Assembly: GCA_045604545.1 (NCBI GenBank)
Contig: JAZUOG010000083.1
Span: 1 to 28,488 of the forward strand
Direction: 5' to 3'
DNA: 28,488 nucleotides
DNA from: Acutalibacteraceae bacterium
Lineage (GTDB): Bacteria > Bacillota > Clostridia > Oscillospirales > Acutalibacteraceae
In this document: one piece after another, positions 3,099 through 17,224 of the stretch
Numbering within the stretch: the first letter of the stretch is position 1
Layout of the letters: every line of letters starts with the position of its first letter
Position numbers and translations under genes: made by a program
Notes under the pieces: generated by a model
Told to the model about the DNA's origin: nothing
What the model saw: only the letters and a program-made list of their open reading frames with translations
Database searches by the model: none

Positions 3099-3677
3099 TT
3101 ATGACAATGTGAACGGGTTCTCGGCTTCGGCGCGGTAGTCGAAGAATTTGGCGGGGTAGACCGTCAGGATCGTACGATGATCGGCGGTGACGATGTAGAA
3201 TTCGTCGCCGTTCACGGCGGTGTTGCAAATTCCTTCGGGGGTCATGCAGAATTCCTTCGACCACGTGTAGTGGTGAATGTGGGGAATACGGTACTCCCCG
3301 AAGGATGAAAAGCGCAGGAATTTCATGTTGACATGCCGATAATCCACGCCGATACGGTCAGCCTCTTCGGTGGTGCTGATAAGGCGATCCCGAAGCACGG
3401 TGAAGCGGCGTTCTTTGGCGATGCGCCGCATGGACATGATCCTGTGTGCGATCAGACCGATCATCACGGCCATGGCCGCCGCGATCACCCCGCGGATGAT
3501 CCATTTCCACATCATGTCTTCTGTGAGCTTCCCGAAACCGTTGATGCAGTCATTCAGCAACAGACACAAACCGCCGGACACGAGCGCAAAGGCGATTCCG
3601 ATGGCAAGATCCTTCAGACTGTACCGTTTGAGCAGGTCGTATTGAATATGATTGTTTTGCAGGACGGCTTTTTTCAT
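3099..3677 (-). CDS. Hypothetical two-TM membrane protein (last gene of the flotillin operon)
   Basis: Start chosen at MKKAVLQNN with RBS aggtg. Hydrophobic segments LAIGIAFALVSGGLCLLL and WIIRGVIAAAMAVMIGLIA. No family recognised. Confidence 0.55.
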   Translation of the reverse strand: MKKAVLQNNHIQYDLLKRYSLKDLAIGIAFALVSGGLCLLLNDCINGFGKLTEDMMWKWIIRGVIAAAMAVMIGLIAHRIMSMRRIAKERRFTVLRDRLISTTEEADRIGVDYRHVNMKFLRFSSFGEYRIPHIHHYTWSKEFCMTPEGICNTAVNGDEFYIVTADHRTILTVYPAKFFDYRAEAENPFTLS

Positions 3678-3699
3678 GACAGTCACCTGTTTCTGCGAA

Positions 3700-5115
3700 T
3701 CATTCCGCGGGGGCGCACGGTACCTCGGCGGGAGGCTCCGACACCACGGTATCCGTTGTCGGCTCAGATTTCTTGCCGAGGATCTCGGGCAACTGCATGC
3801 CTGCCAACGCAAACACATCAGCAAGAGGCGGCACGGATTGCATCATACCCGACAGAAATCCTGCCGTGGCATTCTTGCCGTCGCCGTTCTGACCGTTGTC
3901 CCAGACGGTAACCTTGTCGATCTTGATATTCTTGATCGCGTCCACCTGCACACGCATGAGATCTTCGAGCTTATCGGCGATGAGGAGCTTGAGCGCGGCA
4001 TCGGTATCGCCGCCCGCCGACTTGACGATCTCGGCAAAACCGGCGGCTTGTTTTCTGAGGATCTCTTCCATGCCGCGGGCTTCTGCCGCCATCTTGGCAT
4101 AGATCGCGTCTGCCTCGCCCTGTGCCTTGCGGCGGATCTGCTCGGCTTCTGCTTCTGCTTCGATTTCCAACTGACGCTTTTTGGCTTCTGTCTGCACGAT
4201 CACATCGGCTTCGAGGGTTGCCTGTTCACGGGAGCGACGAGCCTCTTCGGCGGCCTGCTCGGCGGCATAGGATTCCTCGAGGGCTTTTGCTGCCTGAATC
4301 TTCTCGGCGGCAGTGGCGATGCGCAGTGCCTCGGCTTCTTTTTCCTTGAGTGCCGCATCGGACATGGCGATCTTCATTTTAGCTTCGTTTTCGCCTTCGA
4401 TGGCAACGGACGAGGCATTTGCCACTTGAATGCGTTGGTCCATGTGGGCGTTGGCCTCACCGATGGAGCCGTCTCTTTCGCGTTCGGCAACGCTCTTTTT
4501 CGCATCGTTGATCGCTTTGGCGGCGGCTTCCTTACCCAACGCGGCGATGTAGCCCGATTCATCGCTGATATCGGTGACGTTCACGTTGATCAGACGCAGA
4601 CCGATCTTTTTCAGCTCGGTCTCCACGTTACTGCTGACCGCCGCGAGAAATTTATCACGATCGGTGTTGATCTCTTCGATGTCCATCGTGGCGATGATCA
4701 GGCGCAGCTGACCGAAGATGATATCCTTGGACAGCTCCTGAATTTCGGAAAGCTGCAGACCGAGGAGGCGCTCCGCCGCATTCTGCATCACGCCGGGTTC
4801 GGTGGAGATACCGACCGTGAAGCGGGACGGTACATCGATGCGGATGTTCTGACGGGACAGGGCATTTTTCAGATCGACCTGGATGGAGATGGGGGTCAGG
4901 TCCAAAAAGGCATACGATTGAAACACAGGGACAACAAATTCTGCACCGCCGTGAATACATTTGGCACTGCGGTTGGTGCCGTCCTTGTTTTTGCCAATCG
5001 AGCCGTAGACGACCATGATCTTGTCGGAGGGACACTTTTTATAGCGTGAGCACGCCCACACAATAAAAGAGACCAGAATCAAGACAAGAGCCAGTACCAA
5101 TGCGATCGTTTCCAT
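3700..5115 (-). CDS. floT: Flotillin-like SPFH/band-7 protein (FloT/YuaG-like)
   Basis: N-terminal TM followed by an SPFH domain, then a long Ala/Glu-rich coiled coil (EAEAEQIRRKAQGEADAIYAKMAAEARGMEE). RBS aaggagg upstream. Lies directly downstream of an NfeD gene. Confidence 0.85.
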   Translation of the reverse strand: METIALVLALVLILVSFIVWACSRYKKCPSDKIMVVYGSIGKNKDGTNRSAKCIHGGAEFVVPVFQSYAFLDLTPISIQVDLKNALSRQNIRIDVPSRFTVGISTEPGVMQNAAERLLGLQLSEIQELSKDIIFGQLRLIIATMDIEEINTDRDKFLAAVSSNVETELKKIGLRLINVNVTDISDESGYIAALGKEAAAKAINDAKKSVAERERDGSIGEANAHMDQRIQVANASSVAIEGENEAKMKIAMSDAALKEKEAEALRIATAAEKIQAAKALEESYAAEQAAEEARRSREQATLEADVIVQTEAKKRQLEIEAEAEAEQIRRKAQGEADAIYAKMAAEARGMEEILRKQAAGFAEIVKSAGGDTDAALKLLIADKLEDLMRVQVDAIKNIKIDKVTVWDNGQNGDGKNATAGFLSGMMQSVPPLADVFALAGMQLPEILGKKSEPTTDTVVSEPPAEVPCAPAE

Positions 5116-5166
5116 AAATCATTCCTCCTTGAATTGGTGAATATATGTCAAAAAAGGACATACGGA

Positions 5167-5769
5167 TCATTTGCGTCTGACCACCAGTGTGGTCTGACCG
5201 CTCAGCCCTGTGACAACGATCTCCGTTCCCGTAGGAATGGCATCGGCGCTGTCGGTTACCGCGTCGCGTTCGACAAAGCTTCCCTGAAGCAGAATGTTCA
5301 CCTTGCCGATACCGTTTCGCTCGGCGGGGATGGTCAGATAGACTGTGCCGGATGTGCCTAAAGCATTCCGATTGTCGATGTTACCGCCGCTTTGCAAACG
5401 CATGATGGCGCGAAGCAGATAGGCAAGAGCGACCATGATGGCCGCGCCGCACAGCACGGCTACAGGGACGGTGATCCACAAACTGACGGCGTGGGAATTC
5501 ATCACCAGTCCCACCCAGCCGAACACGACAAAGAAAGCGATGATGCCGCGAAGGGTGAAAATGTGAAGAGAATCCATTGCATCGATGTCATAATCCTCCG
5601 CGCCGATATCGGAGACGGCATCGCCGATGGAAGGGTCATCCATTTCTCCGTGATCGCCGATTCCCAGAAAGATCATCACCGTCTGTATGATCAGCACGAC
5701 CGTTGCGGGAATTGCCACAAGGGCGAAAAAGTGCGAGGATGTGCTTAAAGAAGTCCACCATTCAGTCAT
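5167..5769 (-). CDS. NfeD-family membrane protein (YuaF-like flotillin partner)
   Basis: Multi-TM N-terminus plus a C-terminal beta-rich soluble domain. The conserved nfeD-flotillin gene pair. RBS aggagg. Confidence 0.7.
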   Translation of the reverse strand: MTEWWTSLSTSSHFFALVAIPATVVLIIQTVMIFLGIGDHGEMDDPSIGDAVSDIGAEDYDIDAMDSLHIFTLRGIIAFFVVFGWVGLVMNSHAVSLWITVPVAVLCGAAIMVALAYLLRAIMRLQSGGNIDNRNALGTSGTVYLTIPAERNGIGKVNILLQGSFVERDAVTDSADAIPTGTEIVVTGLSGQTTLVVRRK

Positions 5770-5792
5770 TGACTATTCCTCCTTCTGCTGAC

Positions 5793-6347
5793 TTACATCA
5801 AATCACAAAACATATCTTCTGCCGTTCGGCGGCACACGGAAGCATAGTGTGCATAGGCCATTATCTGCAAAACCGTTACAAGCCGTTTTTTGGCACCGTC
5901 ACACGGTTCTGTATAGGTTTGCACGGCGGCTTCGGCGGCCGCTTTCACCGTCTCGCGGTCGAGCGCGCCTTCGCCGCTGACAGCGATCATATCGACATAG
6001 CGGTGATACAGCTCGCTGTCGCTGATGAGATCATCGCTGTCGTCATCGAGGACGCCGTTGATAAAGGATAATATGCCGCAGATGCGGTCGAGCTGCAGTG
6101 ATTCGCGCAGCATGTTGATCGTGACGATGCGGGCAAACTGCTCCTTGGAGTATTGCCGCTTGACAGGGGGAGAAACAAAGCCGCGCTTGACCCAGTTCTG
6201 AATGCAATACGGCTCAAGTCCTGTCATGACCGACACCTGCGAAAGGGTGATGCCGCCCGCGGCAAATAAACCGCTAAACAGCAGTCGCGATGCGTTTTCC
6301 GTCAATCGGGATACTTCAATGGTCGTTCCCGGAAACACCGTTGCCAT
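5793..6347 (-). CDS. MerR-like HTH domain protein (possible DUF1836-type regulator), first gene of the operon
   Basis: N-terminal ITLSQVSVMTGLEPYCIQNWVKRGF resembles the MerR recognition helix. RBS gggaggg. The stop lies 24 nt before the nfeD start. Confidence 0.45.
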   Translation of the reverse strand: MATVFPGTTIEVSRLTENASRLLFSGLFAAGGITLSQVSVMTGLEPYCIQNWVKRGFVSPPVKRQYSKEQFARIVTINMLRESLQLDRICGILSFINGVLDDDSDDLISDSELYHRYVDMIAVSGEGALDRETVKAAAEAAVQTYTEPCDGAKKRLVTVLQIMAYAHYASVCRRTAEDMFCDLM

Positions 6348-6438: not shown

Positions 6439-6572
6439 CTTGTTATCATCAGTATATCATTTTTCGACAGATCCGCAATTTGCGAAAAAACGGCGGCAAA
6501 AATATCATAACGGAGAAAGGACGGTGTTTTTCACAAAGCGGAAGGGATATTATGTTTTTTTGAAAATCCCCC

Positions 6573-6600
6573 TTGACAAATCATAAAAACGGAGTATAAT
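6573..6600 (+). promoter_or_regulatory. Consensus promoter TTGACA-16-TATAAT driving tRNA-Gln
   Basis: Perfect hexamers at 6573-6578 and 6595-6600, with the tRNA starting 19 nt downstream. Confidence 0.75.
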
Positions 6601-6618
6601 ATAAGCGTTCTCAAATAT

Positions 6619-6692
6619 TGCGGAATCGTGTAAGGGTAGCACTACGGCCTCTGACTCCGTCTGTCTAGGTTCGAATCCTAGTTCCGCAGCCA
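6619..6692 (+). tRNA. tRNA-Gln (anticodon CTG) with encoded CCA
   Basis: Manual cloverleaf. Acceptor tgcggaa/ttccgca (7 bp). D-arm gtgt-aagggta-gcac. Anticodon stem acggc/tccgt with loop cTCTGac. T-arm ctagg-ttcgaat-cctag. Discriminator G, then CCA. Architecture matches Firmicutes tRNA-Gln. Confidence 0.85.
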
Positions 6693-6879
6693 AAAAACGG
6701 TCATCGCTTTTGCGATGGCCGTTTTTACTGTCTGCTTCTAGGATTCGAAAGGGGCGTTAAGAAAACGTCACGGTGTGACGTTTTTAGCCCCGTTGGAGAT
6801 GAAGAGACTGCCGATTTTACATGTACCAAAAGACGAGATCAAAACTACCTCCTTGATAAAACACCTAGTTCCGCAGCCA
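6693..6879 (+). repeat. Tandem unit U1 (187 bp): terminator, T-arm-like fragment, internal hairpin, then a 16-nt copy of the tRNA-Gln 3' end
   Basis: Ends in cctagttccgcagcca (6864-6879), identical to tRNA positions 6677-6692. The internal A-run/hairpin/T-run lies at 6762-6785. Confidence 0.7.
6698..6726. terminator. Bidirectional intrinsic terminator T1 after tRNA-Gln
   Basis: A-run, then stem cggtcatcgc/gcgatggccg with loop tttt, then ttttt. Confidence 0.8.
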
Positions 6880-7180
6880 AAAAACGGTCATCGCTTTTGC
6901 GATGGCCGTTTTTTCTGTCTGCTTCTAGGATTCGAAAGAACCGAGCAGCGAGCGCGTCCGGGGGACGAAACAGCGAGCGCGGAGGGCTGTGCAGCAACGC
7001 GATTTTGCAAGCCGCAACCCTTTGCGGCGCAGAAAAATCGAATGTTGCAAACGTTAGTTAAGAAAACGTGCCAGGGGCACGTTTTCAGCCCCGTTGGAGT
7101 TGAAGAGACTGCTGTTTTTGCTTGCACCAAAAGACGAGATCAAAACTACCTCCTTGATAAAACACCTAGTTCCGCAGCAA
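6880..7180 (+). repeat. Tandem unit U2 (301 bp): same architecture as U1 plus a 103-bp GC-rich insertion; ends in the tRNA 3' copy cctagttccgcagcAa
   Basis: Begins with a T1-like terminator at 6885-6914. The internal hairpin at 7063-7085 differs from U1 by two compensatory base-pair changes. The 3' tRNA fragment is at 7165-7180. Confidence 0.7.
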
Positions 7181-7216
7181 AAAAACGGTCATCGTTGTTG
7201 CGATGACCGTTTTCTT
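7179..7216. terminator. Bidirectional terminator T3 (third copy), also terminating htpX on the minus strand
   Basis: aaaaaaa, then stem cggtcatcg/cgatgaccg with loop ttgtt, then tttt. The htpX stop lies 13 nt away. Confidence 0.75.
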
Positions 7217-7228
7217 GCTGTATTCGGA

Positions 7229-8179
7229 TTATTGCATGGGGTTGTCGAAGGCGGGAGCGGGCTCGCTCCGGGTGGCCTCGACGGCGGCAACGGCACTCAT
7301 TTCCTGCAGACGGCGCACACGCTCGCCGTTGTCGGGGTGGCTGGATTCCAGCGCGGCGAACAGGCCGTCCTTGCCGTGACCGGTGCCGAAGCTGGCGAGC
7401 ACCTCGCTCAGCGAGGGACCGTAGCCGCATTGATGCGCATAGGCGTCCGCTTCGTATTCGTTCCGGCGGCTGGTGGCCATGACGAGCCACACGCCGAGCT
7501 GTGTCCATGCACGCATCATCAGCACCAGCAGGAAGTCAGCGACCACGCGGGAGATGCTGATGAAAATGGACGCAACGACACCGCCCCAGCCTCTGCTGAA
7601 TGCCGCGGTGCAGAACTCGCCGATCCACATCATGACATTCGCGACCACGCGAACAATGACGAAGATGGTTGTCACGATCAGGTTGCCCACCGCAACGACC
7701 AGCACGTTGTCGGTGTCCTTGTGAGCAAGGTGACCGAATTCGTGTGCCATGACGCCTTTGATCTGCTCGTCGGAATAGTTGAGCAGGCCGCGGGTCACGC
7801 AAAGCGTTTTGCGACCGGTTGCGAAGGCGTTGGGCTCTTCATCGTCGGACAGGAACATCTGAATCTTGTCGTTGAGCTCGGGGTTGAGCGTTTTGGCGTT
7901 GGCATACACCTCGTCAAACAGCGGTTGCAAACGGTTGAGCACCTCTTGATCGGTGATCTTTTTGCAGTGGCTCTGCAGACGCAGGATCCATTCGCCGATG
8001 GGCGACAGGGCGATGGCGAAGGACGCCGCATAGATCAGAAAGCCCCAAAGAGCACCCATCCAGTCGGTGTAGAAACCGCTGAACAGCGCGGTGATCAGCA
8101 GGATGTTGAGCACCATCCAGATGATCAGACCGGTGTTGCTCTTCTTGAACAGGTTTTTGAAGAAGTCGACAACGTACAT
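7229..8179 (-). CDS. htpX: Zinc metalloprotease HtpX (peptidase M48)
   Basis: HEFGH zinc motif, NAFATG motif and two N-terminal TM segments. Start at MYVVDFFKN with RBS agaggag (the ORF-track start 8224 lacks an RBS). Confidence 0.85.
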   Translation of the reverse strand: MYVVDFFKNLFKKSNTGLIIWMVLNILLITALFSGFYTDWMGALWGFLIYAASFAIALSPIGEWILRLQSHCKKITDQEVLNRLQPLFDEVYANAKTLNPELNDKIQMFLSDDEEPNAFATGRKTLCVTRGLLNYSDEQIKGVMAHEFGHLAHKDTDNVLVVAVGNLIVTTIFVIVRVVANVMMWIGEFCTAAFSRGWGGVVASIFISISRVVADFLLVLMMRAWTQLGVWLVMATSRRNEYEADAYAHQCGYGPSLSEVLASFGTGHGKDGLFAALESSHPDNGERVRRLQEMSAVAAVEATRSEPAPAFDNPMQ

Positions 8180-8295
8180 GGTTTTTTCTCCTCTTTTCTG
8201 TGGATATCGGTATGCACACAGCATACAAGCATGATGTCACATTATGGCACAATCTGTCGCATAATGCAAGCGAAAAAGGATATTTTCCGAAAAAA

Positions 8296-11200
8296 TCACA
8301 GGCTTGCGATGCCGCAGTCGAAGGCGGCTTCGAGCACCTCGCGCAAGGTGTCGAGTGCGGAGAGTCCTTTGCGGATCTTCACGGTGTAATACGGTTTGGA
8401 GCCTGCACTGATCATCATTCTGCCTTGCAGGGCGGCGGACAGCGCCATCGCTTTGGGCATATCCAGCGCGAGCGGATACAAAAGCACCGCGTCGTTTTGC
8501 TGTTTAACTTCGACGATGCCTGCGGCGACCGCCATGTTTCTGAGCAATGCGACTTCGACGAGTCCCTGCACGGCGGCGGGCGGCTCTCCGAAGCGGTCGA
8601 TCAGCTCGTCGTACACATCGAGGCTGTCTTCCTGTGTGCGGATATCCGCAATACGGCGATAGGCTTCCAGACGCTGGGCGTGGTCGGGAATGTAGCGATC
8701 GGGAATGTGGGCGCTGACCTGCAGGTCGATGAGGCAATCCTGTTCGGAGGCGGCGGGGATCTCGCCCTTTTCCGCTTTGACCGCTTCTGTCAGCAGGCGC
8801 AGATACATATCGTAGCCGACCGCCTCCATGTGACCGTGCTGTTGCGCACCGAGCAGGTTACCCGCGCCGCGGATCTCCATGTCGCGAAGCGCGATTTTGA
8901 AGCCCGCGCCGAATTCGGTGAATTCCCGCATCGCGTCGAGGCGTTTGGAGGCGACCTCGTCAAGCACCTTGCCCGCCTTGAAGGTGAGATAGGCAAATGC
9001 ACGGCGGGAGCTTCGTCCCACGCGTCCGCGCAACTGGTGAAGCTGAGACAGACCGTAGCGATCGGCGTTTTCAATGATCAGGGTGTTGACGTTGGGAATG
9101 TCAACACCCGTTTCGATGATGGTGGTGCACACGAGAATATCCACCTCGCGGTCGAGCACCTGCCGCCAGATATCCGACAGCTGATCCTCGCTCATGCGAC
9201 CGTGGGCAACCGCGATGCGGGCATCGGGCAGACGCATCTGCCAGCCTGCCGCGACACGCTCGATGTCGTCGATGCGGTTATGCAGATAATACACCTGACC
9301 GCCGCGGCGAAGCTCGCGCGAGATCGCGTCTTTGAGCAGGCGGGTGTCATGCTCGAGCACGAAGGTCTGCACGGGGTGGCGATCCTGCGGGGCTTCTTCG
9401 ATGATGGACATATCGCGGATACCGCTCATCGCCATGTTGAGGGTGCGGGGAATGGGGGTGGCGGACAGGGTGAGTACGTCCACCGTCGGGAAGCGTTCCT
9501 TGATCTTTTCCTTTTGGGCGACGCCGAAGCGTTGTTCCTCATCGATGATGAACAGGCCGAGGTCGCGCAGCTGTACGTCCTGCGACAGCAGACGGTGGGT
9601 GCCGATGAGCAGGTCGATCTCGCCGTTTTTGGCGCGGCGAAGAATGTCGGTTTGCTGTTTTGCCGTGCGGAAGCGGGAAATCATTTCCACCGTGACGGGG
9701 AAGCCCGAAAACCGCTCGAGAGCGGACTGATAATGCTGATATGCCAGAATGGTGGTGGGAACGAGCAGTAAGCACTGCTTGCCTTCGGCGACACAACGGA
9801 AGGCGGCGCGGAAAGCGACCTCCGTCTTGCCGAAGCCGACATCGCCGCACAGCAGACGCTCCATCGGGACGGCGCGTTGCATATCGAGGCGGATCTCCTC
9901 CGCACAGCGAAGCTGATCGTCGGTCTCTTCATAGGGAAAATGCCGTTCGAAATCGTACTGCCACTCGCCGTCCTCCGAGAAGGCATAGCCCTTTGTCGCC
10001 ATACGTTTGGAATAGAGGGCGATGAGTTCCTTGGCGATGTCCTTGACAGCGCCGCGCACGCGGGTCTTGGCTTTTTGCCATTCCTGCCCGCCGAGGCGGT
10101 GGAGCTTGACGGTCACCTCGTCCTTGGTGCCGATGTATTTGGACACCAGATCGAGCTGTGTCACGGGGACATACAGCATATCGCCTTTGGCAAATTCCAG
10201 CTTGATGTAATCCTTGATGACGCCTTGCATGGACAGTTGTTGGATACCGAGATAAATACCGATACCGTGAGCGGCGTGGACGACATAGTCGCCTTTTTTG
10301 AGCTCTTCGAGACTGCCGATGGGGGTGCCGCGGTCTTTTTTCGCCATGAGACGGCGTTTTTTGGTGCGGGCGGCACGACCGTGGGTGAGAACGGCGATGT
10401 CGCCTTTGGGGAAATCAAAGCCCGAAGACAGACCGCCCGTCGTCACGATGATGCGGTTTTTGAGAGGCTTGTCGGGGTTCGGCGCATACATCGCAGGGAG
10501 TCCCGCCGCCGCGAGGTCTTCGGCGAGCACCTTCGCTGTTTTTTCCTCGGGACCGGCTAGTACGACCGCCGCCGCCTTGCGCTCCATCAGGTCTTTAAGG
10601 TCTTCCTCCAGCAGTTCGGTCGCGCCCGAAAACGGCGGAAGCTGGCGCGCTTCCACGTGCACCTGTGTGCGAAGCGGCAGGTTTTTGACGGTGCGGGTGA
10701 AGTTTTCGGTGATGATAAGCTGACGGGAGGCAAGAAGCGACGTCAGCTCGTCTTCCTCGAGCATAAAACGGTCGAGCGTTTTGCACAGCTTCGCTTCCTC
10801 GAGAAGAGCGGTCAGCTCCTCCGACAGTCGCCACGAAGCGGCGTGGAACTGGTCGACAAGACGGCTCCACTCGCACGCGAAAATGACGCTGTTCGGAAGA
10901 TAGTCAAACAGAGTGGAGGGCTTATCAAAAAGAAGCGGGAGATATTTATCGAGCGGGACGTGACCGCCGCCTTTGAGCACGGCGGCGTCGGCCGAAAGCC
11001 ATTCCTTGGCGGGTGCTTGCTTGCCGCGAAGGGTGGCAGAGAGGGCGGTCAGTTTATCGGCGAGGGCGGTTGTGTCCTCGCACAGCAGTTCCACGGCAGG
11101 CGGAATGCTCACCGAGGTGACCGTTTCGGTACGGCGCTGGGTGTCGATGTCGAAACGGGTCAGCGTGTCGACGGTATCGCCCCACAGCTCCAGACGAATG

Positions 11201-11859: not shown

Positions 11860-12459
11860 TTATTTCTTGGAATACAGGTTCATGGCGCGGGTGATGTCGC
11901 CCTGCGCGATGAGCGCGGCGGCTTTGCCGGCACTTTCAAACGCGTCGTCCATGGTTTTTTTGTCTTCTGCAGGGAAGCAGGACAACACCCACTTCGCCAG
12001 ATCGTAGTCGGGGTGCGGTTTCATGCCGACACCCACGCGCACGCGTGCGAAGGCGTCCGAGCCGAGACAGGCGATGATATCCTTGAGACCGTTTTGTCCG
12101 CCCGCAGAGCCGTTCGGACGAATGCGGATCTTGCCCATGTCGAGGTTGATGTCGTCGGAGATGACGACGATCTGTGACGGATCGAGCTTGTAAAACATGG
12201 CCGCTTCCTGTACGGCAAGCCCGCTCGCATTCATCATGGTCTGCGGCTTCATCAGCAATACGGTCGTGTCGCCGATGTCGGCGCGGGCGGTGAGAGCGTG
12301 GAACTTGTCGCGGTCGATGGTCACGCCCAGCGATTTCGCCAGACTGTCGATGCTTAAGAAGCCTGCGTTGTGACGGGTATTTTCATATTTTCTGCCGGGA
12401 TTGCCCAGTCCGACGATGAGAAAATCGATGGGTCCCGAGGCTTTTTTCTTAAAAAACAT
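11860..12459 (-). CDS. pth: Peptidyl-tRNA hydrolase
   Basis: Start at MFFKKKASGPIDFLIVGLGNPG. Motifs HNAGF and VGVG are present. The ORF-track N-terminal extension lacks an RBS and runs into the AT-rich promoter. Confidence 0.9.
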   Translation of the reverse strand: MFFKKKASGPIDFLIVGLGNPGRKYENTRHNAGFLSIDSLAKSLGVTIDRDKFHALTARADIGDTTVLLMKPQTMMNASGLAVQEAAMFYKLDPSQIVVISDDINLDMGKIRIRPNGSAGGQNGLKDIIACLGSDAFARVRVGVGMKPHPDYDLAKWVLSCFPAEDKKTMDDAFESAGKAAALIAQGDITRAMNLYSKK

Positions 12460-12594
12460 GGCAATATTTCCTTTAATAATAGAATGAACGCCTCTATTAT
12501 GGTACAAAATGAAAGGAAAGGCAAGCAAAATTTGAAGAAAAACAGACAAAATGTGAAAAAATCCCGACTTTTTTCCAAAAGTTTCAAAAATGTC

Positions 12595-12623
12595 TTGGAA
12601 AATGAAAAAACGTATGCTATAAT
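12595..12623 (+). promoter_or_regulatory. Promoter for ppdK (TTGGAA-17-TATAAT with extended TGc)
   Basis: ttggaa at 12595-12600 and tataat at 12618-12623, preceded by tgc. A ~75-nt structured leader follows before the RBS agaggagg. Confidence 0.6.
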
Positions 12624-12700
12624 AGCGGGTGACGGATAAAAAGGCGAATTGCGCCTGCCCGTCATTCAACTGTGTTAATTTTTTTAGAGGAGGCTATTCA

Positions 12701-15331
12701 ATGTCTACTAAGTATGTTTACCTGTTCTCCGAAGGCAACGCGACCATGCGTGAGCTGCTCGGCGGTAAAGGCGCGAACCTCGCCGAGATGACCGCAATCG
12801 GTCTTCCCGTGCCGCAGGGCTTCACCGTCACCACCGAAGCCTGCACCCGTTACTATGACGACGGCCGCAAGATCGACGATGCGATCAAGGCGGAGATCCT
12901 CGAGAACATCAAAAAGATGGAAGAGATCACCGGCAAAAAGTTCGGCGACAAAGAAAACCCGTTGCTCGTTTCCGTCCGTTCGGGCGCTCGTGCTTCGATG
13001 CCCGGCATGATGGACACCATTCTGAACCTCGGTCTGAACGAGGAAGTTGTTGAGACGATGGCTGCTCAGTCCGGCAATGCTCGTTGGGCGTATGACTGCT
13101 ATCGCCGTTTCATTCAGATGTACTCCGACGTCGTTATGGAAGTCGGCAAGAAGTACTTCGAAGAGCTCATCGACGAGATGAAGGAAAAGAAAGGCGTCAC
13201 GCAGGACGTCGAGCTGACTGCTGAGGACCTCAAGGAACTCGCCGGCCAGTTCAAGGCGGAATACAAGAACAAGATCGGCAAGGACTTCCCCACCGATCCC
13301 ATCGAGCAGCTCATGGGCGCTGTCGAAGCGGTCTTCCGTTCCTGGGACAACCCCCGTGCTAACGTCTATCGCCGCGACAACGACATTCCCTACTCCTGGG
13401 GTACCGCTGTCAACGTGCAGATGATGGCGTTCGGTAACATGGGCGACGACTGCGGCACCGGCGTTGCGTTCACCCGCGACCCCGCTACCGGCGATAAGGG
13501 CCTCATGGGCGAGTTCCTCACCAACGCACAGGGCGAAGACGTCGTTGCCGGCGTTCGTACTCCGATGCCCATCGCTGAGATGGCTGACAAGTTCCCCGAA
13601 GCGTTCGCGGAATTCAACAAGGTTTGCGCGATCCTCGAGGATCACTATCGTGATATGCAGGACATGGAGTTCACCGTTGAGCACGGCAAACTCTTCATGC
13701 TCCAGACCCGTAACGGCAAGCGTACCGCTAAGGCGGCTCTGAAGATCGCTTGCGACCTCGTTGAGGAAGGCATGATCGATAAGAAGCAGGCTGTTGCGAT
13801 GATCGATCCCCGTAACCTCGACACCCTGCTCCACCCGCAGTTTGACGCGAAGGCTCTGAAAGCGGCTACCCCCGCCGGCAAGGGTCTGGGTGCTTCCCCC
13901 GGTGCTGCTTGCGGTAAAGTCGTGTTCACCGCTGAGGACGCCGAGGCTTGGAACAACCGCGGCGAGAAAGTCATTCTTGTCCGTCTTGAGACCTCTCCCG
14001 AGGACATCACCGGCATGAAGGCTTCCCAGGGTATCCTCACCGTCCGTGGCGGCATGACCTCTCACGCGGCTGTTGTTGCCCGTGGTATGGGTACCTGCTG
14101 TGTCTCCGGCTGCGGCGACATCATCATGGACGAAGACAACAAGAAGTTCACCCTCGCGGGCAAGACCTACAATGAGGGCGACTATATCTCCATCGACGGC
14201 TCCACCGGCGCCATCTATGACGGCATTATCCCGACCGTTGTCGCACAGGTCGTCGGCGAGTTCGAGACCATCATGAACTGGGCTGACGAGTTCCGTACGC
14301 TGAAGGTCCGCACCAATGCCGACACCCCCGCCGACGCGAAGAAGGCTGTTGAGCTGGGCGCGGAAGGCATCGGCCTGTGCCGTACCGAGCACATGTTCTT
14401 CGAGGCTGATCGTATCGCCGCGTTCCGCGAGATGATCTGCTCCGACACCGTCGAAGAGCGCGAAGCCGCTCTGGCGAAGATCCTGCCCTATCAGCAGGGC
14501 GACTTTGAGGCGCTGTACACCGCCCTCGAAGGCAACCCCGTTACCATTCGTTTCCTCGATCCGCCTCTCCACGAGTTTGTTCCCACCGAGGATGCCGACA
14601 TCGCGGCTCTCGCGGCGGCTCAGGGCAAGACCGTCGAGGACATCAAGAACATCATCACCTCTCTGCATGAGTTCAACCCGATGATGGGTCACCGTGGCTG
14701 CCGTCTGGCTGTCACCTATCCCGAAATCGCCAAGATGCAGACCGCGGCGGTTATCCGTGCGGCCATCAACGTCAAGAAGGCTCATCCCGAATGGAACATC
14801 GTTCCCGAGATCATGATCCCGCTGACCGGCGAAGTGAAGGAAATGAAGTACGTCAAAGACATTGTTGTGGCTACCGCTGATGCGGAGATCGCTGCTGCGG
14901 GCGCTGACCTCAAGTACGAAGTCGGTACCATGATGGAAATCCCGCGTGCGTGCCTCACCGCCGACGAGATTGCCAAGGAAGCGGAGTTCTTCTGCTTCGG
15001 CACCAACGACCTGACTCAGATGACCTTCGGCTTCTCCCGTGATGACGCCGGCAAGTTCCTCAACGCTTACTACGACACCAAGATCTACGAGAACGATCCG
15101 TTCGCGAAGCTGGATCAGAACGGCGTCGGCAAGCTGATGGAAATGGCCGTCACCCTCGGCAAGAAGGTTCGTCCCGAGATGCACTGCGGCATCTGCGGCG
15201 AGCACGGCGGCGACCCTGTCTCCGTTGAGTTCTGCCACAAGATCGGCCTTGACTATGTGTCCTGCTCGCCCTTCCGCGTGCCGGTCGCTCGTCTCGCCGC
15301 CGCTCAGGCAGCAATCAAAGAAAGCAAGTAA
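12701..15331 (+). CDS. ppdK: Pyruvate, phosphate dikinase
   Basis: 876 aa from MSTKYVYLF. PEP-utilising-enzyme phosphohistidine motif GGMTSHAAVVARGMG, an ATP-grasp N-terminal domain and a TIM-barrel C-terminal domain. Confidence 0.95.
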   Translation: MSTKYVYLFSEGNATMRELLGGKGANLAEMTAIGLPVPQGFTVTTEACTRYYDDGRKIDDAIKAEILENIKKMEEITGKKFGDKENPLLVSVRSGARASMPGMMDTILNLGLNEEVVETMAAQSGNARWAYDCYRRFIQMYSDVVMEVGKKYFEELIDEMKEKKGVTQDVELTAEDLKELAGQFKAEYKNKIGKDFPTDPIEQLMGAVEAVFRSWDNPRANVYRRDNDIPYSWGTAVNVQMMAFGNMGDDCGTGVAFTRDPATGDKGLMGEFLTNAQGEDVVAGVRTPMPIAEMADKFPEAFAEFNKVCAILEDHYRDMQDMEFTVEHGKLFMLQTRNGKRTAKAALKIACDLVEEGMIDKKQAVAMIDPRNLDTLLHPQFDAKALKAATPAGKGLGASPGAACGKVVFTAEDAEAWNNRGEKVILVRLETSPEDITGMKASQGILTVRGGMTSHAAVVARGMGTCCVSGCGDIIMDEDNKKFTLAGKTYNEGDYISIDGSTGAIYDGIIPTVVAQVVGEFETIMNWADEFRTLKVRTNADTPADAKKAVELGAEGIGLCRTEHMFFEADRIAAFREMICSDTVEEREAALAKILPYQQGDFEALYTALEGNPVTIRFLDPPLHEFVPTEDADIAALAAAQGKTVEDIKNIITSLHEFNPMMGHRGCRLAVTYPEIAKMQTAAVIRAAINVKKAHPEWNIVPEIMIPLTGEVKEMKYVKDIVVATADAEIAAAGADLKYEVGTMMEIPRACLTADEIAKEAEFFCFGTNDLTQMTFGFSRDDAGKFLNAYYDTKIYENDPFAKLDQNGVGKLMEMAVTLGKKVRPEMHCGICGEHGGDPVSVEFCHKIGLDYVSCSPFRVPVARLAAAQAAIKESK

Positions 15332-16592: not shown

Positions 16593-17006
16593 ATGGAACT
16601 GTCAAATGAAAAGGCACTTGCCGTGGAATGGCGTAAACTGAGAACCCTGCTCACCACCAACAACAAGCTGGAATACGAGTTGTTTAAAAAGGTGTTCGAG
16701 GAGACCAGAGACCTGTTGTCGTCCTGCGCGACGGCAACCGCCATCGACAAAAGCTACATGAACGTGATCGTGGAAGCCTACAAGTTCAGCGGCACTGACG
16801 GTGCTTACAAGGACGCAAAGCCGCAGGCGGCGCTCATCATGACCGAGCGTATGCTGCAGCATTATGTCCTTGACAGCCATGTCGGCGACGTGCGCAGCGG
16901 TGTGTATGTGTATGTGCTGGAAGCGAAGGAAGAGATCTACATTGACTTTGAAAATGTGGACACTTCCATCGCCGTTCTCGGCCGCGCTCTGGAGAGACGG
17001 TATTAA
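16593..17006 (+). CDS. Hypothetical protein (137 aa)
   Basis: RBS aggag 16581-16585, with the ATG at 16593 preferred by spacing. 22 nt after the upstream gene, so likely co-transcribed. Confidence 0.6.
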   Translation: MELSNEKALAVEWRKLRTLLTTNNKLEYELFKKVFEETRDLLSSCATATAIDKSYMNVIVEAYKFSGTDGAYKDAKPQAALIMTERMLQHYVLDSHVGDVRSGVYVYVLEAKEEIYIDFENVDTSIAVLGRALERRY

Positions 17007-17224
17007 GGGCAGGGATAAGGGCAGGGATATCCGCGACATCTGTCGCGGGTGATATTCGCACTACGTGCGAGTGATATTTGCCCCGCGGGCAAGTGAAATG
17101 TTGCTGTCGCAACGTGAAGGAGTCCGCTTCGCGGACGGATCGCCCTCTCAGTCTCGCTGACGCTCGACAGCTCTCCCATGGGGAGAGCCAAGGCGACCGC
17201 CTGTCGCGAGACCACCACCCAACT
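17007..17224 (+). repeat. Hairpin array: direct repeat gggcagggata x2, then four ~22-nt units (GTGAWAT + variable GC hairpin), then a nested multi-stem domain
   Basis: GTGA at 17049, 17071, 17093 and 17114. The hairpins are cgcac-tac-gtgcg, gcccc-g-cgggc, gttgc-tgtc-gcaac and gtccgc-ttc-gcggac. An outer stem gtctcgc...gcgagac encloses gctctccc-atg-gggagagc (17170-17188). Confidence 0.6.

Follow-up and report, generated by a model that had tools for sequence, protein, structure and literature searches.

The question raised by this locus is why the 3′ end of a tRNA should be written out again, and more than once, in the DNA that follows its gene. The stretch analysed, here called the window (28,488 nucleotides (nt), the forward strand of contig JAZUOG010000083.1 in assembly GCA_045604545.1, from an Acutalibacteraceae bacterium of the phylum Bacillota), carries a tRNA-Gln(CUG) gene followed by two tandem units, each of which ends in a copy of the last 16 nt of the tRNA. 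The first-pass annotation, made without database searches, read these units as the attL/attR footprint of serial integration into the tRNA gene and named, among its alternatives, decayed tRNA-gene duplicates and processed small RNAs with a tRNA-like 3′ end. It is the last of these that the evidence now favours, as the units—a tandem non-coding module in the tRNA trailer—may well be, judged by analogy, a Clostridial counterpart of the tyrT-distal repeats of Escherichia coli, i.e. of RtT RNA. Knowledge of the tyrT repeats goes back to the late 1970s and that of RtT RNA to 1991, both being usually seen as an enterobacterial oddity.

The array consists of the following elements, t standing for a terminator, c for an inverted tRNA segment, y for a non-coding body and b for a direct copy of the tRNA 3′ end:

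6573–6600, + strand: tRNA promoter TTGACA-16-TATAAT, a perfect sigma-70-type site with 12/12 matches in the promoter scan
6619–6692, + strand: tRNA-Gln(CUG) gene with encoded CCA (ARAGORN; Rfam RF00005, 52 bits)
6693–6726, + strand: t1, intrinsic terminator (A-run, 10-bp GC-rich stem with one G-U pair on the + strand, T-run), from the sequence and the terminator scan
6732–6749, + strand: c1, CTGCTT-CTAGGATTCGAA, its last 12 nt (6738–6749) being the exact reverse complement of tRNA positions 54–65
6750–6863, + strand: y1, conserved, hairpin-rich non-coding body of ~112 nt
6864–6879, + strand: b1, the last 16 nt of the tRNA in direct orientation (3′ strands of T-stem and acceptor, G73, CCA)
6880–6914, + strand: t2, second terminator copy
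6919–6936, + strand: c2, second inverted tRNA segment, with its core at 6925–6936
6939–7052, + strand: GC-rich extra domain of unit 2, orthologous in the relative L081
7053–7164, + strand: y2, second body copy, with a GC-type hairpin stem at 7063–7085
7165–7180, + strand: b2, third tRNA 3′ end, altered by a single C-to-A change (GCAGCAA)
7181–7213, no strand assigned: t3, diverged third terminator with a perfect stem on either strand

The array can be parsed as tRNA-[t-c-y-b]-[t-c-extra-y-b]-t′, i.e. two tandem units—unit 1 at 6693–6879 (187 nt) and unit 2 at 6880–7180 (301 nt)—running into a decayed third tRNA 3′ end with its terminator. The sequence CCTAGTTCCGCAGCCA, the last 16 nt of the tRNA (positions 61–76, of which b is the direct copy), is found exactly at 6677–6692 and 6864–6879 and with the single C-to-A change at 7165–7180, giving three matches against 0.01 expected in shuffled sequences. 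The first-pass annotation had placed the tRNA, the three copies and the terminators behind them correctly, but it understated the extent of the repeat. The true repeat is a block of 75 nt, made up of the tRNA 3′ end, the A-run/hairpin/T-run terminator and CTGTCTGCTTCTAGGATTCGAAAG; its copies at 6677–6751 and 6864–6938 are 99% identical and extend 59 nt beyond the tRNA end, while the third (7165–7239) is 72% identical and convincing only over its first ~50 nt. The bodies of the units (6756–6912 versus 7057–7213) share 89% identity. As for the terminators, t1 recurs exactly at 6880–6913 and forms the centre of an imperfect palindrome of ~80 nt, the arms of which reach from the tRNA T-loop (6670) to c1 (6749), and t3 serves also the convergent gene for an M48/HtpX-like peptidase (minus strand, stop codon 7229–7231). 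A pseudo-tRNA or a duplicated tRNA gene was rejected, as ARAGORN finds one tRNA only, self-BLAST repeats nothing but the last 16 nt with the trailer and no remnants of a D or anticodon arm are present.

Concerning the start of each unit, described previously as a degenerate T-arm-like fragment, the relation to the tRNA is in fact exact: CTAGGATTCGAA (6738–6749 and 6925–6936) is the reverse complement, over 12 nt and at 100%, of the tRNA segment TTCGAATCCTAG (6670–6681), which the first-pass annotation had missed together with the perfect promoter at 6573–6600. The core of c corresponds to the T-stem 5′ strand, with a T-loop-like sequence after it, and the CTGC of c1 is able to pair with the GCAG of b1. 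In the window the pairing of c with b comprises CTAGG:CCTAG plus CTGC:GCAG, encloses y and leaves an NCCA tail; c and b can pair because both are copies of one tRNA segment in opposite orientations. The minimum-free-energy folds of the units are closed by this c:b helix, with the NCCA tail free, so that c supplies the 5′ strand, b the authentic 3′ strand and the GCCA, and the ~112-nt hairpin domain is placed where the T-loop would be. According to these predictions, a unit RNA would take the shape of an incomplete tRNA top half ending in a CCA tail. The array region as a whole folds much better than shuffled sequences (z = −7.5 and −6.8 on the two strands), and the G-U pairs within t, in the sequences of both the window and L094, favour the + strand as the transcribed one.

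Within y1, GGGGC (6751–6755) pairs with GCCCC (6787–6791) around an A-run/hairpin/T-run element at 6762–6784, and the hairpin is followed by the conserved blocks AGCCCCGTTGGAG, TTTTACNTGNACCAAAAGACGAG and GATAAAACA. This hairpin and its counterpart at 7063–7085 differ by two compensated base pairs (cgtCAc/gTGacg versus cgtGCc/gGCacg), exactly as first reported. The GC-rich insertion of unit 2 was likewise described correctly: this extra domain of ~110 nt contains CAGCGAGCGCG twice (6946–6956 and 6971–6981), the two copies flanking a hairpin cgtcc-ggg-ggacg (6955–6967), after which a long composite hairpin follows at 6994–7048.

The loci of relatives were fetched via the neighbouring genes for the M48 peptidase and Mfd, the identity to the window being given for the Mfd amino acid sequence:

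L081/L082 (two JGI samples), Mfd 96.5%: tRNA-Gln with an array of two units as in the window, unit 2 having its extra domain but being truncated beyond it
L094 (GCA_054265735.1), Mfd 88%: tRNA-Gln among other neighbouring genes, followed by two units of 194 nt that are nearly identical
L095 (GCA_054266855.1), Mfd 81%: contig ending within a unit, with y and b visible
L096 (GCA_054284745.1), Mfd 79%: gene order Mfd-tRNA-Gln-tRNA-Pro, with tRNA-Gln unoccupied and a homologous unit behind tRNA-Pro(CGG)

Three related species thus have the array at tRNA-Gln and a fourth has a homologous unit at tRNA-Pro. The two-unit arrangement, including the GC-rich extra domain, is orthologous between the window and L081; within this domain, the first hairpin of L081 differs from that of the window by two compensatory pairs (cgtcc/ggacg versus ccgcc/ggcgg). 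In L094 the terminator sequence is unrelated to that of the window, c, y and b being alike; c is here a 17-nt inverted copy, and the c:b pairing becomes a continuous 10-bp helix that corresponds to the tRNA pairs 3-70 to 7-66 plus the whole T-stem. The unit of L096 is built from the other tRNA: its c, GTGACAGGATTCGAA, is the reverse complement (15 nt) of tRNA-Pro positions 54–68, its b, TGTCACCTCGACC, equals tRNA-Pro positions 63–75 (13 nt), and the resulting c:b helix has 6 bp. Its ends could not be aligned by MAFFT with the Gln-type ends, yet its body is related to that of the Gln units (alignment z = 6.5–8 against shuffles), the hairpin stem being wholly re-compensated from TCAC/GTGA to CTCC/GGAG. 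In these sequences the core is common, while the tRNA-derived ends, c and b, follow the neighbouring tRNA, be it Gln or Pro. The orthologue of c2 in L081 reads GACAGGATTCGAA and is of the tRNA-Pro type.

It should be mentioned that the set of relatives is small. The M48 homologues P0003, P0005, P0010 and P0014 are not syntenic with the window; the Mfd neighbourhood L097 has neither the tRNA nor a unit; a scan of GTDB genomes with the M48 peptidase yielded as its only relative a non-syntenic one at 55%; and exact-protein look-ups with both flanking genes gave no match. Two metagenome DNA scans for the repeat also gave none, although the JGI contigs contain the pattern, the collection scanned being incomplete for this lineage.

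Several further observations were made at these loci. In L081, the truncated unit 2 is replaced (5925–6250, minus strand) by ~330 nt of other hairpin repeats, consisting of a long inverted repeat (cctgtcattccgaacgcagtgaggaatc ... cctcgcaatgacagg) and short hairpins each placed after ATATCAC, by its look a different intergenic repeat family. In L095, convergent genes are separated by a lone bidirectional terminator (12698–12740) that shares 93% identity with the t of the window and has a similar GCTGTCT behind it; situated 1.5 kb away from the array of that species, it could be either a b-t-c block in decay or a clade-wide type of terminator. In L096, a 38-nt terminator-like hairpin alone (5626–5663) separates tRNA-Gln from tRNA-Pro, and a second partial tRNA-Pro terminator with the start of c is found at 6040–6085, ~100 nt beyond the unit.

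With the anatomy and its variation at hand, the comparison with E. coli can be made. The tyrT-tyrV locus of E. coli contains 178-nt units, each ending in the last 19 nt of tRNA-Tyr and annotated as rttR/tpr, and matches the Rfam family RtT (RF00391) four times with 133–138 bits. In the RtT consensus the closing helix is formed by GGGGAAGGAU pairing with AUCCUUCCCC, which leaves the tail CACCACCA; this helix is an inverted copy of tRNA-Tyr positions 59–68 paired with the direct 3′-end copy. Inverted and direct tRNA copies were located by a script, relative to the tRNA end, for every tRNA in the sequences collected:

E. coli tyrV: inverted copy of 10 nt at +59, direct copy of 19 nt at +159
Window and L081: inverted copy of 12 nt at +45, direct copy of 16 nt at +171
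L094: inverted copy of 17 nt at +47, direct copy of 16 nt at +178
L096 tRNA-Pro: inverted copy of 15 nt at +52, direct copy of 13 nt at +180

None of the 11 control tRNAs has an inverted or a direct copy of at least 12 nt. The geometry is the same in both systems: counted from the tRNA end, inverted copies fall within +45 to +59 and direct copies within +159 to +180. As with RtT, the units lie on the tRNA strand within the trailer, in tandem and with a length of about 180 nt (187 and 301 nt here, a period of 194 nt in L094, 178 nt in E. coli); each unit ends in the last nucleotides of the cognate tRNA including CCA (16 nt for Gln and 13 nt for Pro, 19 nt for the Tyr of E. coli); and the minimum-free-energy folds share a closing helix around a multi-hairpin domain together with a free NCCA tail. 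The units are also found at different tRNAs, here Gln-CUG and Pro-CGG, as RtT is at several tRNAs (PMC4986893). RtT RNAs have been reported to arise by processing from the transcripts of tRNA operons, and a connection with the stringent response has been proposed; members of the Rfam family adjoin Asn and Lys tRNA genes in Pasteurellaceae (PMC4986893; bioRxiv 10.1101/2024.07.17.603846).

The differences concern mainly the inside of the unit and its host. A canonical intrinsic terminator stands between b and c in every unit here, whereas there is none in the E. coli units; the internal domain here is a terminator-like A-run/hairpin/T-run; the host belongs to the Bacillota, the tRNAs are tRNA-Gln and tRNA-Pro, there is no tpr-like conserved open reading frame (ORF), and the Clostridial units are known here from DNA alone. 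Transcription of E. coli tyrT reportedly terminates in a Rho-dependent manner within the repeats, as found by Rossi and co-workers in 1981. Motifs seemingly in common with the E. coli units (CGAGCG and AGCGAGAGCG) were discarded as they are without statistical support, and the Rfam scan of the units gave no family except tRNA. A second system from a tRNA trailer is 3′ETS-leuZ of E. coli, said by Lalaouna and co-workers in 2015 to be a functional small RNA from the tRNA 3′ external spacer that ends at the operon terminator—a single short spacer reportedly acting as a base-pairing sponge of small RNAs; it resembles the present units in its origin from a tRNA trailer, but it has no re-created tRNA end and is not repeated.

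Whether the units are maintained for a purpose was judged from their conservation. At the four-fold degenerate sites of Mfd, the window is 70%, 56% and 53% identical to L081, L094 and L095, respectively, whereas y is 89%, 88% and 80% identical to the same three; the 60 nt upstream of the tRNA reach 74% between the window and L094, i.e. less than y. A similar level is reached by the intergenic region between the genes for pyruvate-phosphate dikinase and peptidyl-tRNA hydrolase (PPDK-Pth; 97%, 85% and 79%). The hairpin of y has 100% of cells paired among the Gln units, with two doubly changed pairs, and the blocks of y outside the hairpin, too, are invariant among the Gln-type unit copies of four species. 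These comparisons indicate that y is far more conserved than silent sites and point to constraint on the body. The PPDK-Pth intergenic region itself (window 12427–12700, with counterparts in L081, L094, L095 and L096) is unusually conserved, which suggests a regulatory element or a structured leader.

At the same time, the copies within a genome are kept alike: the first two 75-nt copies of the window are 99% identical and the two units of L094 98%, and the hairpin type of unit 1 in L081 is that of unit 2, not that of its orthologue. Both the homogenisation and the L081 hairpin point to gene conversion with unequal exchange, and the 75-nt b-t-c blocks are proposed to be the sites at which unequal crossing-over and gene conversion enlarge or reduce the array. 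The same facts would fit a functionless by-product, a partial tandem duplication of the tRNA gene with its terminator by unequal crossing-over or by template switching during replication at the palindromic terminator. Such an event would have left fragments of a pseudo-tRNA 3′ end and surplus terminators, the copies owing their likeness to gene conversion by the functional copy and to selection confined to the terminator hairpins that separate convergent genes. The b-t-c block is indeed a long imperfect palindrome with its right arm an inverted copy of its left, as template switching yields (PMC5453318); the terminator part has been swapped wholesale between lineages; the last copies decay (b2, t3 and a remnant of c in the window, the truncated unit 2 in L081); and the conserved hairpins all resemble bidirectional terminators. 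Gene conversion between paralogues, however, does not slow the divergence between species, yet y retains 80–88% where the synonymous sites are saturated, and the invariance extends to the y blocks that form no hairpin. Nor does the by-product explain a homologous y with c and b re-matched to another tRNA, or the recurrence of the same geometry, independently, in E. coli. Altogether, an origin of this kind without function seems rather unlikely.

The integration favoured by the first-pass annotation would make the units scars or miniature cis-mobilizable elements, each with an attL and an attR arm, inserted via a recombinase specific for the T-loop, stacked by accretion and possibly mobilisable in trans, with y conserved as the carrier of binding sites for the recombinase or accessory proteins. 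A part of the evidence agrees with it: at tRNA-Gln as at tRNA-Pro, the insert lies between direct repeats of 13–16 nt from the tRNA 3′ end; the arrays end in b, with unrelated sequence beyond it; the basic event resembles, at either tRNA, an insertion of t-c-y between copies of b; and tRNA-Gln is empty in the more distant L096. Moreover, the tRNA-Gln 3′ segment TTCGAATCCTAGTTCCGCAGCCA is present in three settings in IMG/VR. Four proviruses with a large serine recombinase (L087, L088, L089 and L092, positions 1–28) begin exactly at CTAGGTTCGAATCCTAGTTCCGCAGCCA, the recombinase ORF running into the tRNA fragment; a tRNA-less fragment of 26 nt lies 120 nt from a tyrosine integrase gene (L091, 2224–2246); and one of 30 nt is found at the end of a phage contig just before tRNA-Glu (L093, 5814–5843). 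This tRNA-Gln is a real prophage attachment site in the IMG/VR proviruses.

Documented precedents are the tandem islands bounded by repeats of the ssrA 3′ end, with insertion at the T-loop and integrase-less cis-mobilizable members (PMC3146451, PMC5704250). Such islands at tRNA or transfer-messenger RNA 3′ ends—those at ssrA of Dehalococcoides and the accretions of streptococcal cis-mobilizable elements (CIMEs)—share with the present units the direct repeats of the 3′ end, the tandem stacking, the lack of an integrase within the units and a repeat beginning at the boundary between T-loop and T-stem (PMC3146451, PMC5704250). They are, however, kilobases long, mutually different and variable between strains, while the units here have 187–301 bp and are paralogous, vertically inherited and non-coding; the units carry, in addition, an inverted tRNA copy, which the attachment sites of the islands do not need.

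This inverted copy weighs against integration, since its pairing with the direct copy is one of the traits that define RtT and is not predicted by an attL/attR footprint, which leaves c unexplained. Other results, the constraint on the body among them, point the same way. The units are 89% identical paralogues rather than independent inserts, their identity extending 59 nt past the tRNA; 187 bp is very small for circularising; the units contain no ORF; and the E. coli analogue is known as an RNA. No recombinase was found among the ORFs scanned in the 28 kb of the window, such recombinases with tRNA-Gln as the target occurring in the proviruses of other organisms. The first-pass annotation had itself named an arrangement fixed in all relatives as evidence to the contrary, and this is borne out in part by the vertical inheritance, in the window and L081, of the arrangement including the extra domain of unit 2. 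Copies of the unit outside tRNA trailers were found neither in the window nor in the 98 fetched loci (0.9 Mb; BLAST and nhmmer), and no match was obtained in three IMG/VR scans for unit-specific patterns or in a distant BLAST of phage and plasmid collections. While the repeated tRNA ends, the empty tRNA-Gln of L096 and the IMG/VR site speak for it, integration as the source of the units is thus considered unlikely.

Other mobile elements were dismissed on similar grounds. A dispersed repeat derived from a miniature inverted-repeat transposable element or an insertion sequence was rejected, as no copies lie beyond tRNA trailers in the window and the 98 loci; casposon-like transposition, or any with target duplication, was dropped for the lack of terminal inverted repeats; and a guide-RNA-like element (TnpB omega-RNA, IS110 bridge RNA) was dropped as there is no transposase or recombinase nearby and the copies occur only at tRNAs.

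Returning to the RtT-like reading, the units would probably represent, by analogy, a tRNA-end mimic transcribed by read-through. The very strong tRNA promoter—identical and perfect also upstream of the tRNA in L094 and L096—would drive some read-through of the terminator t; the c:b helix would then form, and the RNA would resemble part of a tRNA top half, its NCCA tail single-stranded and the trailer of the real tRNA behind it. Because of this top half, the CCA and the same trailer, it is proposed that the enzymes maturing tRNA ends may treat a unit like a real tRNA and release RNAs of ~150 nt (unit 1) and ~260 nt (unit 2). The released RNAs may be decoys or competitors of the factors reading uncharged tRNA 3′ ends, or may report to them; at minimum, as the tRNA gene stands by itself, is highly expressed and points towards a convergent gene, the units might act behind it as a fail-safe for termination and processing. 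Across the three arrays scanned (window, L094 and L096), no promoter-like site other than that of the tRNA recurs: on the + strand downstream of the tRNA the scan found no further one, and a promoter inside the unit was rejected, none being conserved in these arrays. It is from the DNA that we infer transcription, processing and function of the units.

Several points weigh against this reading. The complementarity of c and b follows automatically from their shared tRNA source and is no independent proof of selection for pairing. A strong canonical intrinsic terminator precedes every unit, so that transcription depends on read-through. The RF00391 model gave no RtT match on the window or L096, either at the gathering threshold or at E ≤ 10, and nhmmer detected no similarity between the Clostridial and the E. 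coli units in either direction; the link to RtT is therefore one of architecture only, in the sense of working like it, and not one of membership. Compared with L081, the closest relative of the window, y (89%) is conserved no better than other intergenic DNA (83–97%); it is thus the more distant species that carry the argument from constraint, which draws on only five genomes, and the covariation statistics are based on just 4–6 sequences. Finally, to our knowledge no function of RtT RNA is accepted, so that the role of the system used for comparison is itself unsettled.

What is new here is an RtT-type trailer repeat in another phylum, at other tRNAs, with an unrelated core and built-in terminators, but not a new principle. 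The same geometry without sequence kinship, the re-matched ends and the constrained core argue that the architecture itself—a partial acceptor/T-arm helix with an NCCA tail around an inserted domain—is selected. As a much more speculative extension, which we regard as improbable rather than probable, modules of the RtT type could be widespread and repeatedly evolved cognate-specific mimics of the tRNA top half in the trailers of free-standing tRNA genes, their inverted and direct copies kept matched because the RNA would titrate, or report to, the readers of the acceptor end, the Clostridial family being an independent second instance. The candidate readers include 3′-maturation nucleases, the CCA-adding enzyme, stringent-response or T-box sensing, toxins cleaving the acceptor stem and T-loop-specific integrases. 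If such a second, independent instance is real, the decades-old question of RtT becomes testable by comparison, which should be of interest to the fields of tRNA processing and small RNAs as an independent system for an old question. The geometry offers a search rule for other lineages, namely to look behind each tRNA end for an inverted copy at ~50 nt and a direct one at ~170 nt, and the locus gives a caution for the annotation of genomic islands, in that a repeated tRNA 3′ end is not always an integration scar.

The opposite strand has also to be considered, since the first-pass annotation had pointed to possible minus-strand leader peptides. These mini-ORFs of 24 and 29 amino acids do exist, and the products in question would be such small peptides, with AAGGAGG and a TTG start, or an antisense RNA beginning with the complement of the tRNA 3′ end. 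The ORFs with the ribosome-binding-like site are present in both the window and L081, and each unit starts, on this strand, with TGGCTGCGGAACTAGG, complementary to the tRNA 3′ end. Both AAGGAGG and the frame are, however, lost in L094 and L095, in agreement with the original remark that the peptides are not conserved; the substitutions show no preference for third codon positions, the t hairpin contains a C-A mismatch when read on this strand, and no minus-strand promoter is conserved in the arrays scanned, the one weak match (9/12, at 6842–6814) not being kept in unit 2, L081, L094 or L095. Products of the minus strand are accordingly very improbable, this reading appearing to be largely refuted by the comparative sequences.

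A small-protein gene was rejected as well, in the absence of a conserved ribosome-binding site or frame (lost in L094 and L095), and so was the open frame of 143 codons on the + strand (6775–7206), which has no start signal and takes substitutions over all codon positions. A long open frame at 7094–8389 (+), antisense to the M48 peptidase gene, has neither a start signal nor codon-like conservation; both frames are liable to be miscalled as genes by a naive ORF finder.

Apart from the array, the window of 28.5 kb, which is a complete contig of an uncultured Oscillospiraceae-like organism from the gut, encodes, among others, a dockerin/CotH protein and a Gut-1 RNA. The Rfam match of the latter, at 17047–17125 (+), scores 53.3 bits, barely over the gathering score of 50, overlaps 22-nt tandem repeats (17049–17104) and adjoins a 12-nt repeat (17004–17029). 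Between the CotH/dockerin gene and the tRNA promoter there is a block of ~3.3 kb (3099–6347, compared with L081 6709–6925), containing genes for an SPFH/Band-7 protein, two proteins without a Pfam family and a DUF1836/MerR-like protein; it is missing from L081/L082, where CotH abuts the tRNA, and represents an insertion or deletion on the side of the tRNA opposite to the repeats.

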